Origin: an uncultured Halobacteriales archaeon
Lineage (GTDB): Archaea; Thermoplasmatota; E2; JACPAO01
DNA length: 31,259 nucleotides
Assembly (NCBI GenBank): GCA_964641035.1
Contig: CAZXJU010000002.1
Span: 1-31,259, forward strand
Reading direction: 5' to 3'
Shown piece after piece: positions 8,786 through 16,054 of this stretch. Each line of letters starts with the position of its first letter. Positions within the stretch are counted from its first letter, which is position 1. The position numbers were made by a program, and so were the translations under genes. The notes under the pieces are model-generated. The model had not been told where the DNA came from, did not search any database, and saw only the letters and a list, made by a program, of their open reading frames with translations.

Positions 8786-10483
8786 ATGCGCGCCCAGGCC
8801 GTCCTCCTTCTTGCACTCATGATCGCCGCGCCGCTGGCCATGGCCCAGAACGACTGGCCACAATACGGCCGCGACGCCACCCACCAAAGCGCCGTCCCCA
8901 CCAACCAGAACAGCGAATTCGAACCGTTCCTCGAACGCTGGTGGAACAACGTCTCCATCTCCGCCAAACCCGGATCCCCGGTCGCCTTCGACAACATCGT
9001 CTACGTCGGCGACGCCGACGGCAACCTCCACGCCTTCGACCGCGAAAGCGGCGGCCCCCTATGGACCGTCGAAGTCGCCGGCAACGCCGTCATCGAGGGC
9101 GCCCCCGCCGCCGGCGAAGAAGCCGTCTACGTGCTCGCCCGCACCGGCTCGATCTACGCCTTCGACCCCGACGACGGCAGCCCCGTCACCGGCTTCCCCC
9201 TCTCCACCGCCAGCCCCGCCTCCGGCTCCGTCCTCTTCCACAGCCAACAGAACCTCGTCATCGGCGCCGGCGGCGCCACCATCCGCTCCTACATCGCCGA
9301 CACCCAGGAACAGAAATGGACCTTCAGCGCCTCCGGCCTCTTCGTCGGAAACGCGACCAGCGGCATCAACTGCCCCGGCGGCACGATCGTCGGCACCCCC
9401 GTCATCTTCGAGAACCTCGTCTTCTTCGGATCCACCAACAAGTGCTTCTTCGCACTCGACAACCAAGCCTTCGGCACGATCTCCGCCACCGGCAATGCGC
9501 CGAACAAGCCACGATGGGTCTTCCAGGCCGACGACTCGATCCAAAGCTCGCCCGCCATCGACGTGCAGAACCGCCGCGTGCTCTTCGGCGACATCTCCGG
9601 CAACATGTACTCCATCAGCGTCGACAACAACGGCAAGGTCTCCACGGCCACATGGAAGTACACCGAACCGCTCGTCGGCAACCTGCCCTCCGAGTTCCGC
9701 GCCGGCGCCGCCATCGTCGACGACCGCGCGATCGTCGCCTCACGAAACGGCAAGGTCAACGCCCTGTCGTTGACCAACGGCGCCAAACTCTGGACCCAGG
9801 CAAGCGACCTCGGCGGCGAGATCGTGGGCACCCCCGCCGTCGCCGACGGCAAGATCCTCGTCGGCACCCGCACCGGCACCGCCGGCACCATGTACATGCT
9901 CAACGTCACCGACGGCGGCATCATCGACCAACGGCCCGCACTCGACAAGATCTCCGCCACCCCCATCATCCTCGGAACCCAAGGCATCTGGGCCAGCGAA
10001 GACGGCACCTTACACTCCTTCGGAGGCCAGAAACCCGCCCGCGCCGACCTCGCCGTCATCAGCCTTTCGCCGACGAGCATGATCAGCGGCCAGGCCACCA
10101 CGATCAGCGGCACGATACGAAACCAGGGCGAACTCGACGCACCCGCCACCGTCGTCTCCATCATCGTCGGCAGCCAACAGATCAGCGAGCAAAGCGTGAC
10201 GGCCCTCGCCGTGGATCAAACCGACTCCTTCAGCGTTTCCTACACGCCGTCGGCGGCCGGGAAACTCACCGTGACCGCGTTCGTCGACGCGGGCCGTCAG
10301 ATCCAGGAGAGCGACGAATCCAACAACGTACGCACCGTCGACGCGACCGTCACGAACCCGCCGCCGCCCGTCACCCAAGACCCGGCCAGCACGGAGAAGA
10401 CGCCGGCGCCCGGCGTCGCGCTCACGTTGTCGTTCCTGGCGCTTCTAGTGCTAGCCTTGGCGCGCCGACGCCGGGTCCGGTGA
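8786..10483 (+). CDS. Secreted PQQ-repeat beta-propeller + CARDB domain surface protein with C-terminal sorting-type anchor
   Basis: Signal peptide; DWPQYGRDATH N-terminal motif; repeated SP.....VYVG/A.D..G...W units; DLAVISL...IRNQGE...ESDESNN (CARDB); tail TPAPGV-TM-RRRRVR. Confidence 0.85.
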   Translation: MRAQAVLLLALMIAAPLAMAQNDWPQYGRDATHQSAVPTNQNSEFEPFLERWWNNVSISAKPGSPVAFDNIVYVGDADGNLHAFDRESGGPLWTVEVAGNAVIEGAPAAGEEAVYVLARTGSIYAFDPDDGSPVTGFPLSTASPASGSVLFHSQQNLVIGAGGATIRSYIADTQEQKWTFSASGLFVGNATSGINCPGGTIVGTPVIFENLVFFGSTNKCFFALDNQAFGTISATGNAPNKPRWVFQADDSIQSSPAIDVQNRRVLFGDISGNMYSISVDNNGKVSTATWKYTEPLVGNLPSEFRAGAAIVDDRAIVASRNGKVNALSLTNGAKLWTQASDLGGEIVGTPAVADGKILVGTRTGTAGTMYMLNVTDGGIIDQRPALDKISATPIILGTQGIWASEDGTLHSFGGQKPARADLAVISLSPTSMISGQATTISGTIRNQGELDAPATVVSIIVGSQQISEQSVTALAVDQTDSFSVSYTPSAAGKLTVTAFVDAGRQIQESDESNNVRTVDATVTNPPPPVTQDPASTEKTPAPGVALTLSFLALLVLALARRRRVR

Positions 10484-11323
10484 CACCGACTCCGAAGCAC
10501 CACCGCCGCGCGACGGCGCGACATCAAGACGTTCCGGGCAGCCGTGGCGCCTCGCGCACCCCGCGCACCGCGCCTTCGACCGGTGGTCCCGATGCGCCTC
10601 GCCCGTCCGCTCGGCCAACTGGATCCGAAGAAGCGTACGCACCAACTCGTCCTCCACCCGGTCCGAAAACGGCACCTCGAACTTCTCCTCAGGATACTCG
10701 ATGATGCCGTGCTCCGGCCGCGTGCCCGTCTCCGACTCGATGAGGTGACAGTACGCGGCCAACTGCAGGACGTGGCTGTCGTACGGCCGTTTCGGCGTCC
10801 GACCCGATTTCACCTCGACCGGCACCGGCCGGCCGTCGCGCTCGACCACGTAATCCGGCCGGCCCTCCAACGGCAACGTCTTGCTCACCAACACCTCCGG
10901 CCGGCCCGACTCGGTGTCCACGTACGCCACGTCCCCGCGCACCACGCGCGCGGACCGGCCCAACGCGTCGGCGCGGCCACGGAAGAACAAGTGGAACGCC
11001 AACAGGTACATCGCGCCCGCGCACCACAAGACCGACAAGAAGACGAGTAACCAGTAGACGCCCGTCGCCGCCTCCAAGAAGAGAAGCTCGATCCCCAGCA
11101 CCGCCGCGCCGATCGTAAGGAGCGCCAACAAGAAGGCGGTCTCGATGCTGAAGACGGCGTCGCGCTGCAACGACCCGATCCGGTCGACGCGCTCCGAGCG
11201 TTCCCGATGCGTCCGGACGCCGCCGCTGCCGCCGACGCCTTCGGTCCCCTCCTTCGCCCGCTGCCAATTGAGGGGGCAATACACGAACCGGTCGATGTCA
11301 CCGGCCGCGATCCGGTCAGACAC
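10451..11323 (-). CDS. Solo Cas4-like PD-(D/E)XK nuclease with two inserted transmembrane helices
   Basis: YCP (Cys1), GxxxH, GRPDY, EVKSG, QLAAY and C-terminal CAGCARRHGC (3 Cys). Two hydrophobic segments lie at about aa 61-83 and 89-114. No cas1/cas2 or array in the window. Confidence 0.8.
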   Translation of the reverse strand: MSDRIAAGDIDRFVYCPLNWQRAKEGTEGVGGSGGVRTHRERSERVDRIGSLQRDAVFSIETAFLLALLTIGAAVLGIELLFLEAATGVYWLLVFLSVLWCAGAMYLLAFHLFFRGRADALGRSARVVRGDVAYVDTESGRPEVLVSKTLPLEGRPDYVVERDGRPVPVEVKSGRTPKRPYDSHVLQLAAYCHLIESETGTRPEHGIIEYPEEKFEVPFSDRVEDELVRTLLRIQLAERTGEAHRDHRSKARCAGCARRHGCPERLDVAPSRGGGASESVSPDPASARQG

Positions 11324-11423
11324 GAGGCGACCATGAGAGGTGGACCAAGAAGTAACTATCGTTGAGGGCGAGGGACCCCGACATCCCCGCAGCTTCCGTC
11401 TGTCGTGTCCGCGGCCCGGGTGG

Positions 11424-11756
11424 TCAAACGAGGGCGTTCTGGATGACCTGACGGACTTTCAAAAGCGTGCCTTGCGTCACCCGACCCGCCCGGTCACGGA
11501 GACTCGCCACGTCGTCCGACACCATGATTTCCGGCACGACGACGGAGCCGGCGTCATTCAGTCCTCCTTCTTGGAACGCGGGCTCGACCGTCGTCCACTA
11601 CGCCTTGGGCGTGGTGGTGAACGAAACGACGATGACGACGCCGGTCAGCGCGGTCACGCCGGCCCGTGAGACGACGAGCACGGGTCGGCGCTTGGTGCCG
11701 CCGCCCTGAAGCGGGAAATCCATCCAGTAGACCTCGCCAGGCTCCGGGTTCGCCAC
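11424..11756 (-). pseudogene. MazF/PemK-family toxin, 110 codons, interrupted by an in-frame TAG at codon 53
   Basis: Hand translation: MANPEPGEVYWMDFPLQGGGTKRRPVLVVSRAGVTALTGVVIVVSFTTTPKA*WTTVEPAFQEGGLNDAGSVVVPEIMVSDDVASLRDRAGRVTQGTLLKVRQVIQNALV. TAG is at 11600-11598. The GTG start overlaps the upstream gene's stop (TAGTG). Absent from the ORF track. Confidence 0.8.
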
Positions 11757-12175
11757 TAGCCTTCCGCCTGGTCAAGCAGCCGGCCGGCCGAGGCGCGGCT
11801 TGCGTACAATAGTTCCGACTGCTCGCGTTCCGCCTCGGCCTCCATGTATTCCTCGAGTGCCGCCCGCGGCGCGAACACACGGTGTTCGTCGTCGAGGAAG
11901 TATCCACGGTGATGCCGTCGAAGGATCTCCAGGTGGCGCGCGACCGTCCGAGGATCCTTCTTCGCAGCCGCGGCAATCTTGCTCACGTGGACCGCGGGCG
12001 CGCCCGGCTTGGACAAACGGCGGACCGCCCGAACGACCGCCTGGTGGACTCGCAGCGACTTCTCGGCCCGGGGCGACGACAAGGCGACTTCGACCTCGGA
12101 CGGCGTCAACGGCCCCTTGTCGCGGGGCCCGTTCCTGGATGCGACCCGTTTCCCCTTCTTCGCCATCTCCATCAT
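11756..12175 (-). CDS. wHTH protein, putative antitoxin/regulator of the MazF-like gene
   Basis: Likely start ATG 12175, 12172 or 12166. HTH-like VSKIAAAAKKDPRTVARHLEIL and acidic helical tail ALEEYMEAEAEREQSE; 1-nt overlap with the toxin start. Confidence 0.6.
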   Translation of the reverse strand: MMEMAKKGKRVASRNGPRDKGPLTPSEVEVALSSPRAEKSLRVHQAVVRAVRRLSKPGAPAVHVSKIAAAAKKDPRTVARHLEILRRHHRGYFLDDEHRVFAPRAALEEYMEAEAEREQSELLYASRASAGRLLDQAEG

Positions 12176-12931
12176 AATGGATTCCAACTCCACGATTATG
12201 TAGTTTCCCTTCGTCCCCTTGCGTGCGATCAAAGGACCCCGGTCCAGGCCCCCAACCCACCGTAGCGACCAGGAACGCCATGCGAACCAGCCATTGCAGG
12301 CACGTTGGCCCTCCGTGGCTGTAACCATTTTGGAAACGGCGTTTGCAAGACGCCTGCACGCTCCGAACGCCCCACGACGGCCGTCGCGCGGCGCGCCCCA
12401 GCCGACAGCCAACGTGCGCGTCCTGCAAATCGTGATTGTGCACGCCACGTCCTTCCGGAAGGTTCACGAATCAGGGCGCGAGACGAACCGCGACGTCCCC
12501 CGGCTGAACCACGTTGGCGCCCGCCCGCTCGACCATCCACTCGGCCAAGTCCGCCAACCTCCACGGAACCTTGACAAGCGACAAGGCGGCGGAGCAAAGG
12601 GGTATAACCCTGGCGACCGGGCCTTCGTGCAGGACGGCGATACCGTCATCTGGGTCGGGGAGAAATCCAACGAGCGTGCAGAAGCGCTGGCCACCGCCGT
12701 CGACATCGAAACGCTATCGCTGAAGGACGTACGGAAAAAGGTAAAGAAATAGTGACCCTAGTTCGCACATGCGACGAAGACGCCCCGGCGTGGCGCGTCT
12801 TCGGATGTGATGTAGGCGGAGGTCATATTTTACCGTAATGGAAGTGACGCTTTCTCCAGGCCCCTTGTAGAGGGGGCCGGGCCCAGGTACCGGTCGGATA
12901 CGTCCCAAGAAGACGAACTCGACCGGCCATT

Positions 12932-13825
12932 TTACGCGTCCCGAATCGTCGTCCACGTCGCGCCCTGGTCCCGCGACTCCATCACGAGCCCGGCCCCCGT
13001 GCTGGCAAACGCGTGCGTCGAATCCGCCGGATCCACGGCGAAAAGCACAGGGGCGGACACGCCGCGCAGGGCCGCCGGCGTCAGCTCGGTCCATGAGGCG
13101 CCGCCGTCGACGCTGCGGTACGTCGATCCCGACTGGCCTTCGGCGGCGGTCGCGAACCACGCCTGGCCGTCGGACGAGACCGCCACGGTCACCACGAGCT
13201 CCGGCAACCCCTCGGCCTCGACCGCCGTCCAATTGCCGAACGACTCCAGGTCCCGCGTCTCGAAGAGACCCGACGCGGTGGCCGCCACCAACGACCCGGG
13301 CGCACCGGCCAACGCGATGACCTCCGCCGGTGGACCCGCATGGTCGGTCCACGTGGCGCCCGCGTCGGTGGAGACCTTGACGGCGGGCTTCCAATACCCG
13401 GCCAACCACCCCTCCTGGCCCGCGATGCTCGTCAGCGCATGGAAATCCACCTGACCCCTCAAGCTCCGCTGCTCCCACGTCTCCCCACCGTCCACGGACC
13501 GCCGCAGGCCCAGGTTCACGCCGCCGTACGCCAAGCGATCGTCCGGGTGGCCGCTCGAATAGAATACACCCGGCGTCTCCGCGTCCTGCGTGAACCCCAT
13601 GTAGTCGTACCGGTCCTCCCCGACGTACGACCACGACCAGGCGTCCCCGTCCGCCACCCCTCTGACCAGCCCGTCGTGCGTGGCCACGAAGAGCGCCTCC
13701 CGACCCGGGTCGTACGCCAGGCCGTGCACGTGGGTGAACTCCACGTCCGAGGCCGGCTCCGGTTGCGAACAGCCGGCCAACACGGGCGCCACGACGAGCG
13801 CCGCCAGGACGAAGGCCTTCCGCAT
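12932..13825 (-). CDS. BNR/Asp-box beta-propeller lipoprotein (F510_1955-like)
   Basis: MRKAFV...LAGC lipobox; THVHGL..ATHDGL, DYMGF, SGHP; Asp boxes SVDGGETW, STDAGATW, SVDGGASW, SRDQGATW. Confidence 0.8.
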   Translation of the reverse strand: MRKAFVLAALVVAPVLAGCSQPEPASDVEFTHVHGLAYDPGREALFVATHDGLVRGVADGDAWSWSYVGEDRYDYMGFTQDAETPGVFYSSGHPDDRLAYGGVNLGLRRSVDGGETWEQRSLRGQVDFHALTSIAGQEGWLAGYWKPAVKVSTDAGATWTDHAGPPAEVIALAGAPGSLVAATASGLFETRDLESFGNWTAVEAEGLPELVVTVAVSSDGQAWFATAAEGQSGSTYRSVDGGASWTELTPAALRGVSAPVLFAVDPADSTHAFASTGAGLVMESRDQGATWTTIRDA

Positions 13826-14189
13826 GCCGCCCGCAAGAGGCGGGCCAGTCTTTGGTTCCTTCCCTCGGACACGGGACCAAATCCCCGACGGCCAGGGCCA
13901 CATCATCGGCCAAGACGGCCGCAGCGCGCAGATTGGTGAGCGTATTCATAAAGAAATTCGAAGTCAGCACAGTTCAGATATAAGCGCGCTCACTGATCTG
14001 AGCATCTTTGTAAGGATTCCGCATCTTGGCTAGCGATGGACGACGCAGCCCGCGCGTGCGTCCAACGCGGTCCAAGGCGCTCCAACGCGCAACCGTGGCG
14101 CCGAATGGCCGCGCCGAAGATGAACGGCGCCGTCCCGGCTTCGCATGGGACCGGGGAAGTCTCGGAGCCGGCGGGGAGCCCAGTGCCTC

Positions 14190-14591
14190 TTAGCCGGATT
14201 CCCCCGCCACCACGGAATCGGCCCATGCGACGAGGCGCCGGGCCCGTTTCGTGGCCACCTCGGCCTCGTGCGCCTCGTACTCCCGCGCCTCGTACTCGAT
14301 GAGGTTCTTGTCGCGGATCAAACGCACGAACTGCTCCGCGCGGTCGTCCGCGTCGTCGAGCCCAGTTCGCCGCACGAGCTGGGAAGAGCGCTCGTGGTCG
14401 GCGTCGCGCGACCGTTCCCCCAGCATCCACGTCGTCACGGCGTCGACGGCCGAGATCCCGGCGTGGACCGCGCCAAGGCCCGCGGCGTTCCAGTCACCGC
14501 CTGAAAGCGAGGCCTCGGCGGCACGCAGGAACTCCGTCGATTTCCGGAGATAGACGTGGGATTTGCGTGCAGGAAGTCGTTTGACCCTCAT
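14190..14591 (-). CDS. HEPN domain protein (toxin partner of an MNT-HEPN module)
   Basis: Helical 133 aa protein: KSTEFLRAAEASL..GDWNAAGLGAVHAGISAVDA...KNLIEY. ATGA overlap with the upstream MNT gene. Confidence 0.8.
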   Translation of the reverse strand: MRVKRLPARKSHVYLRKSTEFLRAAEASLSGGDWNAAGLGAVHAGISAVDAVTTWMLGERSRDADHERSSQLVRRTGLDDADDRAEQFVRLIRDKNLIEYEAREYEAHEAEVATKRARRLVAWADSVVAGESG

Positions 14592-15187
14592 CCGTCGGCC
14601 GCCAGCATCGCGACCCCGTCCTTCTCGATGGCTCGGACCAAGGCCAGGTCGCGCTTGCTGTCAAATTCGTCTTCCGAGTAGATAACCTCCGCCAGGGGGT
14701 TGGTGAAAGTGGCTTCGATCGCCTTGCGCAGGGAAGCCACGGCGTCCCGGACACCGGCCTTGTCGTCATCGGCCCGGACGACGATGAGCAGGTCGATGTC
14801 GCTCGACGGGGTCTCCTCGCCCCGCGCGATGGACCCGAAAAGCGTCGCCTGGACGACGCGCGGGTCGGAGCCGACGTGGTCCCGGACCAGGTCCCGCAGC
14901 CGCCGGATCCCGCCGTCTTGCGCGGCGAGCAGGGCGCTGAGCGGTTCGACAAGGAAGTGCGTCCGCTGGAGCCGCCATTCGTGCGCGCGGCCGACGGTCC
15001 TGCGGTGGACCAATCCGTGCGACTCCAGCCGGCGAAGCGTCGTCAGGGCGTCGGAAGGATGCACATCGGCCGTTCGCGCCAGTTCCCGTCCTGTGAACCC
15101 CTTCGCCGGATGTCGCAGGAGGGTGCCGATGACGCGCAACGCACTGCGTCCCCGGAGGATGTCGTCCAGCGGAGAATGGAACCTCAT
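14588..15187 (-). CDS. wHTH + minimal nucleotidyltransferase (MNT) antitoxin
   Basis: N-terminal wHTH (FTGRELARTADVHPSDALTTLRRLESHGLV) and NTase motif LFGSIARGEETPSSDIDLLIV. Start is ATG 15187 (or 15205), not 15532. Confidence 0.85.
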   Translation of the reverse strand: MRFHSPLDDILRGRSALRVIGTLLRHPAKGFTGRELARTADVHPSDALTTLRRLESHGLVHRRTVGRAHEWRLQRTHFLVEPLSALLAAQDGGIRRLRDLVRDHVGSDPRVVQATLFGSIARGEETPSSDIDLLIVVRADDDKAGVRDAVASLRKAIEATFTNPLAEVIYSEDEFDSKRDLALVRAIEKDGVAMLAADG

Positions 15188-15225
15188 GTACGGAACCCTG
15201 TACATATGTACGGTATCACGTACAT
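15186..15225. promoter_or_regulatory. Two tandem 20-bp palindromic operators ATGTAC-N8-GTACAT
   Basis: 15186-15205 ATGTAC ggaaccct GTACAT and 15206-15225 ATGTAC ggtatcac GTACAT; they overlap the MNT start region. Confidence 0.7.
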
Positions 15226-15364
15226 AAGGGTTCGTTTGTGCCGCGGGCGTTGGCCGCCCGGCCGGTCGTCGACCGAGCCGCCGTGAAATCATAGCGTATG
15301 ATGGTTCTAAGGTGGTTCGCGCGGGCGGAAATGAGTCCTGGACTCCACATGCAAACCCGAACAC

Positions 15365-15379
15365 CAAACTCGCTATAAG
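15365..15379 (+). promoter_or_regulatory. BRE/TATA promoter
   Basis: CAAACtcgcTATAAG; shares CACCAAACTCG with the promoter at 26173-26190. Confidence 0.55.
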
Positions 15380-15404
15380 CGGGACAACGACCAAACCGGC
15401 CTTT

Positions 15405-15602
15405 GTGAACGTGAACATCGAACGGATGGCGGAGACGGTCCAATGGTCGCACACATGCGGTGCCGAGGGGTCCACGGTGGCCCCCATCGACGTCACACCC
15501 TTGGCCGAGCACCTGGCCGCGTGCCCCGACAACCGCGTGATCGTCGTCGAGCTACGCGAATCCTACGTCGTCTACGGCGACTGGATCCGCCCCGGCCGGT
15601 AG
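15405..15602 (+). CDS. Small hypothetical protein (65 aa; His/Cys pair motifs)
   Basis: GTG lies about 25 nt after the TATA box (leaderless spacing); alternative ATG at 15426. Contains WSHTCG...EHLAAC. Confidence 0.45.
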   Translation: MNVNIERMAETVQWSHTCGAEGSTVAPIDVTPLAEHLAACPDNRVIVVELRESYVVYGDWIRPGR

Positions 15603-15727
15603 CCGGCGACCTCGCCGCCATCCGGCCGCAGCGGACGCAGGACGTCCCCGATCGGCGTCCATCGGACGATCACCAGTCCGGACCGACCGTCGAAAAGGAC
15701 CCGGGTGTGCCTTCCGGCCAGGTGCGC

Positions 15728-15850
15728 TCACAGGACGACGAGGCCCACCGCGAGGAGGCCGAGGGCGCCCAGGGCGATCGCCACCGCCGTCAGGCGGAGA
15801 AAGACGAGGGTCGAGTCGCCGTCGAAGAGCCATGCGAACATGAACGGCAT
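15728..15850 (-). CDS. Small single-TM protein (40 aa)
   Basis: MPFMFAWLFDGDSTLVFLRLTAVAIALGALGLLAVGLVVL; the ATG directly follows the TAA of the upstream ORF. Confidence 0.45.
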   Translation of the reverse strand: MPFMFAWLFDGDSTLVFLRLTAVAIALGALGLLAVGLVVL

Positions 15851-16054
15851 TTATCCGAGCCTCCGCATCTTAATCGTTTCTATCACCAGCGCCAGCGCGA
15901 CCATCGCGACGGCCGTACCTGTCCATAACGCGAGATGATCGAGGCGTCCATCGAGGAAGCCTTGAAAGGCTTGGGCCGCGGCGTTGGCGCTGGCTAGGAT
16001 GGCGATCAACCAGGCCAGATGACGGTCCGCCAGTCGGACGACAGCCCTTTCCAT
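15851..16054 (-). CDS. Small two-TM protein (67 aa)
   Basis: MERAVVRLADRHLAWLIAILASANAAAQAF...LALWTGTAVAMVALALVIETIKMRRLG. Confidence 0.5.
   Translation of the reverse strand: MERAVVRLADRHLAWLIAILASANAAAQAFQGFLDGRLDHLALWTGTAVAMVALALVIETIKMRRLG

Follow-up and report, generated by a model that had tools for sequence, protein, structure and literature searches.

The Cas4 proteins described from CRISPR systems, among them SSO0001 (4ic1), Pcal_0546 (4r5q), the type I-C Cas4 (8d3l) and the Cas4-Cas1 fusion (7mi4), have in common an N-terminal cysteine helix, a motif I histidine, the D/ExK residues, a QhxxY motif and a C-x2-C-x5-C group of cysteines. Roughly half of the genes of the Cas4 family are found away from CRISPR loci, with roles that are for the most part unassigned (PMC5704561). 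These solo Cas4 proteins, surveyed by Hudaiberdiev et al. in 2017 (PMC5704561) and studied in M. mazei (PMC12501428), have been described as soluble enzymes; the word "transmembrane" does not occur in the 2017 survey, and its single use of "membrane" is unrelated. The subject here is a gene at 10451-11323 on the reverse strand of a stretch of 31,259 nucleotides (contig CAZXJU010000002.1 of assembly GCA_964641035.1, an uncultured archaeon of the Thermoplasmatota), the whole of which is called the window below. Its product is a solo nuclease of the Cas4 family, without CRISPR, and is predicted from its sequence to be an integral membrane protein with nuclease activity, in which two transmembrane (TM) helices interrupt the nuclease domain; it is referred to as TM-Cas4.

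TM-Cas4 shares with the canonical CRISPR Cas4 proteins both the fold and all of the motifs listed above. Unlike them, it has a predicted TM hairpin of about 60 residues between motifs I and II, it has the additional conserved residues C192 and R245-x-H247, and it is not accompanied by cas1, cas2 or CRISPR partners. With the solo Cas4 proteins it has in common that it is encoded outside cas loci and that its cellular function is unassigned, whereas it differs from them in being predicted to be membrane-integrated, in being core-like in one phylum and in occurring also as a two-gene split form. The PD-(D/E)XK core is further common to AddB, RecB, Dna2, Exo5 and MGME1, and in AddB, Dna2 and Exo5 a Fe-S clamp spans the nuclease domain, as is predicted for TM-Cas4; in contrast to this group, TM-Cas4 is much smaller, has no helicase domain or helicase partner, and would be anchored in the membrane. 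Nucleases held at a membrane are also known in EndA, NucA and the nuclease domain of ComEC, of which EndA and NucA act on the outer face of the membrane. TM-Cas4, which adjoins type IV pilus genes here, resembles these in position only; their folds are unrelated to it, and its own catalytic domain is predicted to be cytoplasmic.

In the searchable full-text literature, no description of a transmembrane, membrane-anchored or split Cas4 was found. The sole paper that pairs the terms Cas4 and membrane concerns a soluble Cas4-DEDD fusion (PMC13621843), and Cas4 goes unmentioned in two reviews of archaeal type IV pili. The enzyme family itself is known, while the TM-inserted and split architecture and the phylum-wide distribution without CRISPR are not known from this literature.

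The gene and its Cas4 signature

The open reading frame (ORF) extends from a GTG start to a TAG stop and encodes 290 amino acids, as taken from the ORF list and translation. Its GC content at third codon positions (GC3) is 0.89, which is the value expected of a real gene in a genome of about 66% GC (the value of the window). Homologues were matched over their full length and have the same start, the closest (P0002) with 96% identity at 100% coverage, so the GTG start is right. Matches above the cut-off were obtained with Pfam Cas_Cas4 (PF01930; 7e-10, residues 153-262, 39.6 bits against a cut-off of 22.7) and, by a narrow margin, with NCBIfam TIGR00372 cas4 (67 bits against 65), and PDDEXK_1 (PF12705) was matched at 6e-9 over residues 121-263. 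In databases the relatives are named Cas4, "CRISPR-associated exonuclease Cas4" or PD-(D/E)XK nuclease. A profile search against PDB sequences returned the Cas4 structures 4r5q, 8d3l and 4ic1, with the N-terminal cysteine motif of the nuclease aligned to that of 4r5q and 8d3l.

The Cas4 signature is complete in the protein: C16 within the motif FVYCPLNW, G35xxxH39, D157, E170-V-K172, Q187-L-A-A-Y191 and C253-x2-C256-x5-C262, of which D157, E170 and K172 are the counterparts of D99, E113 and K115 in the published description of SSO0001 (PMC13621843). A first-pass annotation of the window had already recognised a solo Cas4-like nuclease with one plus three cysteines, PD-(D/E)XK motifs and QLxxY, and each of these residues is indeed present; the motif I histidine, which was absent from its list, has to be added. 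At E <= 0.001 the family numbers 994 representatives in sequence searches, which also gave 117 close clusters. Conservation was counted over 357 cores and 224 N-terminal modules (N-modules). In the N-module, C16 is kept in 220/224, W20 in 221/224, G35 in 221/224 and H39 in 217/224; in the core, the counts are 354/357 for D157, 347/357 for E170, 357/357 for both K172 and Q187, and 355/357 for Y191, with 354/357 for C253, 354/357 for C256 and 349/357 for C262. The catalytic and cysteine residues are accordingly 97-100% conserved across the family; an absence of the catalytic ones from orthologues had been named in the first-pass annotation as evidence that would speak against it. Two further features are specific to this family and stand outside the classical Cas4 motifs: a fifth cysteine, C192 (10748-10750), which directly follows QhxxY in 298/357 cores, and R245-x-H247 (10583-10591) just before the cysteine cluster, with R in 346/357 and H in 348/357.

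Predicted fold

The structure was modelled with AlphaFold2 from an alignment of 41 homologues of the two-helix form (mean pLDDT 89.4, pTM 0.83). In the model, helices 33-82 and 89-125 are very long, and the nuclease core with its strands and helices comes after them. The best PDB matches of the model in Foldseek are the type I-C Cas4, the Cas4-Cas1 fusion, MGME1, Pcal_0546 and ACE1. When superposed with VIA-align, model residues 1-273 coincide with the Cas4 domain of 7mi4_A (its residues 7-210; Z 19.8, 182 residues, root-mean-square deviation 2.9 A), while residues ~31-126 match only free helical hairpins, such as those of ESCRT-III and ROP. Because of these superpositions, the N-terminal 55 and the C-terminal 150 residues can be read as one ordinary Cas4 domain from which the hairpin protrudes. 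The model thus supports a protruding hairpin of two hydrophobic helices, and not the buried helices of a soluble protein that were set down at first pass as the contrary outcome. The cysteine-to-cysteine geometry proposed for the putative Fe-S site is that given by the superposition alone.

Predicted membrane hairpin and topology

The two hydrophobic segments lie between motif I (H39) and motif II (D157), and hence between the first cysteine and the catalytic core, where two TM helices had been placed at first pass. Their Kyte-Doolittle means over 19 residues reach maxima of 2.46 (residues 65-83) and 2.27 (92-110), compared with the usual threshold of 1.6, and their Hessa free-energy sums are -1.43 kcal/mol for helix 1 and -0.92 kcal/mol for helix 2. 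Lysine and arginine residues (K+R) are concentrated on the flanks: averaged across the 41 two-helix homologues, there are 2.95 of them ahead of helix 1 and 4.46 beyond helix 2, against 0.76 within the loop. In the same alignment the residues of the helices are poorly conserved and their hydrophobicity is kept, which fits an anchor.

The number of helices was further counted by delimiting the N-module and the core with hidden Markov models and counting the hydrophobic helices between them. Among 136 fused members, 122 have an insert of 2 (n=54), 4 (n=56) or 8 (n=12) helices. A further 13 fused proteins gave apparently odd counts, but their inserts are of the same lengths as in the 2-, 4- or 8-helix forms, so that one weak helix below the threshold accounts for these counts. 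Of the proteins without an N-module, 109 have exactly one N-terminal helix; these are halves of split genes. A Pfam scan of the 4- and 8-helix forms gave sub-threshold matches only, e.g., DUF2339, and no known domain in the insert. From the charge distribution, the even helix count and the split forms described below, both soluble parts are predicted to be cytoplasmic; with both on one side of the membrane, the Fe-S site can form, as the first-pass annotation had supposed of a hairpin.

Split genes

In three genomes of the archaeal family f4, two ORFs that abut or overlap take the place of the single gene, with the break in the hairpin loop. The N-piece (~87-123 aa) contains the cysteine helix, GxxxH and one helix at its extreme C-terminus, and the core piece (~177-201 aa) begins with one N-terminal helix, followed by a lysine/arginine-rich stretch and then the core. 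In Chloroflexota the gene is likewise split in the hairpin loop, and the two pieces stand in a conserved operon after DUF3467 and a translin-like gene (~220-250 aa), the N-piece with 80 aa and the core with 171-175 aa; in L040 the annotation places SSB directly upstream, and L116 has this upstream gene cluster as well. The split N-pieces are tail-anchored, which would therefore leave their soluble part in the cytoplasm, and the split cores are signal-anchored with the charge pattern of an N-out/C-in signal anchor.

Matches across the phylum, with core open frames of 179-257 aa, suggest that the split form occurs throughout family f4. In one genus of this family (G058 and G172), N-part and core are matched together in one frame, which aligns with 3-268 of the 269 profile positions and has a single internal stop (TAA or TGA), and the two halves appear to be parted by just one stop codon.

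Distribution and independence from CRISPR

The record titles of the family are those of Thermoplasmatota, Thermoplasmata, Methanomassiliicoccales and Poseidoniia, with Chloroflexota for the split bacterial form. In the class of the window genome, the gene was found in 49 of 61 genomes (G000 and 60 relatives) and in 29 of the 31 of high quality; of the 197 high-quality genomes sampled across the Thermoplasmatota, 140 have it. The distribution is all-or-none by family, with 32/32 genomes in f24, 29/30 in f4 and 1/29 in f10. The gene is vertically inherited, single-copy and near-core in the phylum, and is not an isolated oddity.

The nuclease is independent of CRISPR. The genome of the window is a soil metagenome-assembled genome of 2.1 Mb, 86% complete, with one Cas4 gene. 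The 31,259 nucleotides of the window contain no cas genes, in agreement with the first-pass annotation, and neither Cas1, Cas2 nor a CRISPR array was found in this genome at that completeness. Among 37 searched relatives of the order, Cas1 was found in none and the nuclease in 28. The sequence itself turned up in soil DNA metagenomes only, with no RNA run among the runs listed.

Gene neighbourhoods

Neighbouring genes were clustered over 96 unique loci and annotated with Pfam. In 17 unique loci, all of them in the order of the window, the nuclease has an archaeal type IV pilin at most two genes away. The pilin is divergent from the nuclease in family f2, and in f1 the two are co-directional; 9 loci of this order have T2SSF/T2SSE assembly genes near the nuclease. 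Among the 96 loci, pilin adjacency was not seen in lineages outside it. CDP-archaeol synthase (CarS), often the direct neighbour in this order, is at most three genes away in 10 unique loci.

In one lineage with the four-helix form, a surface protein of 650-870 aa lies directly upstream on the same strand in 14 unique loci. It is made up of a signal peptide, an LTD domain, two HKD motifs, a PKD domain and a C-terminal membrane anchor, and is a surface-exposed phosphodiesterase of the PLD superfamily. Its gene shares 38 nt with the start of the Cas4 gene in four loci (L015 and L019 included), and in the others overlaps it or ends at most 21 nt away. At the other end of the four-helix Cas4 gene, 17 loci with differing upstream contexts have a convergent, tail-to-tail neighbour, a protein of about 105 aa that has two TM helices, a C-terminal coiled coil and no Pfam match.

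In the window the order is pilins, a surface protein with a PQQ beta-propeller and CARDB, the nuclease, 4.7 kb of cassettes, and CarS. The convergent PQQ/CARDB gene, 8786-10483 (+), overlaps the nuclease gene by 33 nt at the 3' ends; its product has a terminal hydrophobic helix and then RRRRVR, which resembles an anchor of the PGF-CTERM type, and compared with the order in relatives (nuclease, pilin, PQQ) the gene is inverted and moved. The insert of ~4.7 kb at 11324-16052 contains a MazF/PemK-like frame (52-aa ORF 11598-11756), a 230-aa gene without a Pfam match, a BNR-repeat protein, HEPN, and a fusion of a MarR-type winged helix-turn-helix with a nucleotidyltransferase. In an orthologue at 55% identity (L014), CarS is 89 nt from the nuclease gene, which makes the toxin-antitoxin and Abi cassettes between the two in the window local insertions; the region looks like a hot spot for cassette insertion. 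The features of the gene and the related loci are collected in Table 1.

Table 1. Positions of the features of the TM-Cas4 gene (in the window, unless a locus or genome is named) and of related loci, with the basis of each assignment
Feature	Position	Strand	Basis or remark
Whole gene, TM-hairpin Cas4 family nuclease	10451..11323	-	ORF list, GC3, Pfam/NCBIfam, homologues
N-terminal Cas4 module, residues 1-55 (predicted cytoplasmic)	11159..11323	-	C16 (11276-11278), W20, G35xxxH39; conservation, 4r5q/8d3l alignment, model superposition from residue 1
Motif I histidine H39	11207-11209	-	G35xxxH39
Predicted TM helix 1, ~residues 57-83	11075..11155	-	Kyte-Doolittle maximum, Hessa sum, model helix 33-82
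Short loop, residues 84-88, EAATG (predicted extracellular)	11060..11074	-	low K+R; split point in f4 archaea and Chloroflexota
Predicted TM helix 2, ~residues 89-114	10982..11059	-	Kyte-Doolittle maximum, Hessa sum, model helix 89-125; followed by the basic stretch RGRADALGRSARVVRG
PD-(D/E)XK / Cas4 catalytic core, residues 115-266 (predicted cytoplasmic)	10526..10981	-	Pfam, Foldseek, VIA-align
Motifs II and III, D157...E170-V-K172 (putative metal site)	10808..10855	-	conservation; SSO0001 correspondence
QhxxY motif Q187-L-A-A-Y191 and family-specific C192	10748..10765	-	conservation
C-terminal putative Fe-S cysteines C253-x2-C256-x5-C262	10538..10567	-	conservation; aligned with C-terminal cysteines of 4r5q and 8d3l
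Non-conserved C-terminal tail (residues 267-290) and stop codon	10451..10525	-	tail missing from most homologues; pLDDT ~60
Candidate TATA-like box ATAGTTAC, ~32 nt upstream of GTG	11352..11359	-	read off the sequence, tentative
Split TM-Cas4 loci of family f4	L037:6998-7791	-	
	L038:6618-7522	+	
	L039:6720-7525	+	
Single-stop cases of family f4	G058:C61:2906-3676; G172:C25:5163-5933		
Chloroflexota operon loci	L040:3368-5516; L043:3765-5528; L119		
LTD-PLD upstream loci	L015:5438-8038; L019:4456-7038; and 12 further		
Two-TM protein of ~105 aa	L067:6994-7314 and 16 further loci	-	strand given for L067; upstream contexts differ

Proposed function and competing explanations

The explanation that we favour as a whole, and hold to be reasonably probable, is a membrane-anchored Cas4 that acts without CRISPR on incoming DNA. 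The hairpin of two TM helices, placed between the motif I helix and the first strand of the core, would anchor the enzyme in the cytoplasmic membrane, and the N-terminal 55 residues and the C-terminal core of 150 residues, both in the cytoplasm, would pack into one complete Cas4 fold. A [4Fe-4S] cluster would be held by C16 together with C253, C256 and C262, and a Mn2+ or Mg2+ ion by H39, D157, E170 and K172, which would put the active site at a distance of a few nanometres from the membrane, on its inner side. By analogy with SSO0001, other Cas4 proteins and the solo-Cas4 of M. mazei, the enzyme is expected to be a metal-dependent DNA nuclease that cuts or trims DNA ends. Anchoring would restrict it to DNA that appears at the membrane, and its likeliest substrate would be DNA with free ends there, i.e., DNA entering the cell.

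Of the roles at the membrane that had been suggested at first pass (uptake, viral entry or segregation), DNA crossing the membrane is the one suggested by two independent contexts, the pili and the surface phosphodiesterase; the pilins in this order and the PLD-type enzyme in another lineage would favour uptake or scavenging of extracellular DNA. This assignment stays conjectural beside the housekeeping neighbours of most lineages and the missing ComEC and DprA. In its most specific and rather doubtful form, the proposal would make the family the cytoplasmic, membrane-docked nuclease of a ComEC-less archaeal DNA intake, in which pili or the LTD-PLD protein capture and cut DNA outside and the anchored Cas4 trims or degrades the emerging strand inside.

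Several points weigh against the favoured explanation. The nuclease activity, the Fe-S cluster and the membrane insertion are all predictions: the TM segments were assessed by hydropathy scales, the exposure of the hairpin was judged from superpositions, and the poorly conserved TM residues give no clue to a partner. Pilin adjacency is limited to one order and may be synteny passed down by descent. Lipids and not DNA could be the substrate of the PLD-type neighbour, its closest PDB matches being a "phospholipase" and a mitochondrial cardiolipin hydrolase. Outside the order, most lineages have housekeeping genes next to the nuclease (GlmS, a GlmU-like enzyme, AcnX, Trm1, an NTPase, TIM and Kae1), and the idea of a universal gene partner had to be rejected, as clustering of the loci gave lineage-specific contexts only. 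In addition, ComEC (PF03772) and DprA (PF02481) were not found in the 86% complete genome.

Among the competing explanations, an innate defence at the point of entry is unlikely: an anchored, end-dependent nuclease would degrade linear viral or plasmid DNA upon injection, as RecBCD does with phage DNA, but at the membrane. Enzymes of the Cas4 family act on DNA ends, and the solo-Cas4 of M. mazei degrades linear double-stranded DNA (PMC12501428); ACE1, a Cas4-family protein and a structure match of the model, reportedly cooperates with Argonaute against invading DNA, and toxin-antitoxin and Abi cassettes stand beside the gene in the window. However, defence genes are usually patchy, whereas TM-Cas4 is single-copy, near-universal in its class and in much of the phylum, and placed in conserved housekeeping synteny. 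The reading of the locus as a defence island was rejected, the neighbouring cassettes being local insertions by the comparison with L014. Quite unlikely, too, is a housekeeping role in DNA metabolism at the membrane, such as end processing in repair, replication termination or chromosome segregation, with the pilin and PLD contexts as accidental synteny. The core-like, vertical distribution and the housekeeping neighbours in most lineages would agree with it, as would the relatives AddB, Dna2, Exo5 and MGME1 (the last among the structure matches), which are repair and replication nucleases; but the clustered neighbourhoods contain no helicase, Mre11/Rad50 or HerA partner, and we are aware of nothing in end processing that would require an anchor in the membrane. 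Nor are the distributions of TM-Cas4 and of NurA, the archaeal resection nuclease, complementary, and replacement of NurA was rejected: both nucleases occur in families f5 and f9, TM-Cas4 alone in f24 and f4, and f10 and f12 mostly lack the two.

The remaining explanations are much less probable. It is very improbable that the hydrophobic helices are not transmembrane at all and form instead a soluble coiled-coil or oligomerisation hairpin, or lie buried in the fold. Similar hairpins do exist in soluble proteins such as ESCRT-III and ROP, and the TM call is one of hydropathy scales; yet hydropathy is well above the TM threshold over 20-26 residues in both arms, the insert grows in helix pairs only (2, 4, 8), each split half keeps one hydrophobic helix as a tail anchor or signal anchor, the charges follow the positive-inside pattern, and hydrophobicity outlasts the sequence of the helices. 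A non-DNA substrate at the membrane, RNA or a lipid-linked phosphodiester, is given equally little credence. It would connect the nuclease with lipid enzymes, namely the nearby CarS here and, elsewhere, the PLD-superfamily enzyme with its matches to lipid-cleaving structures; but the full signature of a Cas4 DNA nuclease, QhxxY and the Fe-S domain included, is strictly conserved, the characterised members of the fold family are nucleic-acid nucleases, and the PLD protein bears an LTD domain, a type of domain common in secreted nucleases. Least probable of all is a Cas4 of CRISPR adaptation that works in trans with cas genes at another place in the genome: the TIGR00372 score just over its cut-off and the CRISPR-derived names of relatives would speak for it, while the genome yielded no Cas1, Cas2 or array, and Cas1 was found in none of the 37 searched relatives of the order, most of which carry TM-Cas4.

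Significance of the family

The membrane-anchored Cas4 family gives solo Cas4 a defined, predicted cellular location, and its design is unusual in that a membrane hairpin would stand inside a Fe-S nuclease fold and be tolerated as four or eight helices or as two genes. The natural split forms are a ready-made system for the study of Fe-S assembly across two membrane-anchored polypeptides. The carriers of the family include the abundant marine Poseidoniia and the Methanomassiliicoccales, some isolates of which can be cultivated, and the testable question raised by them is the task of an end-processing nuclease at the inner face of the archaeal membrane. If the proposal of a DNA intake without ComEC were true, solo Cas4 would have a cellular role that predates CRISPR adaptation and does not depend on it.

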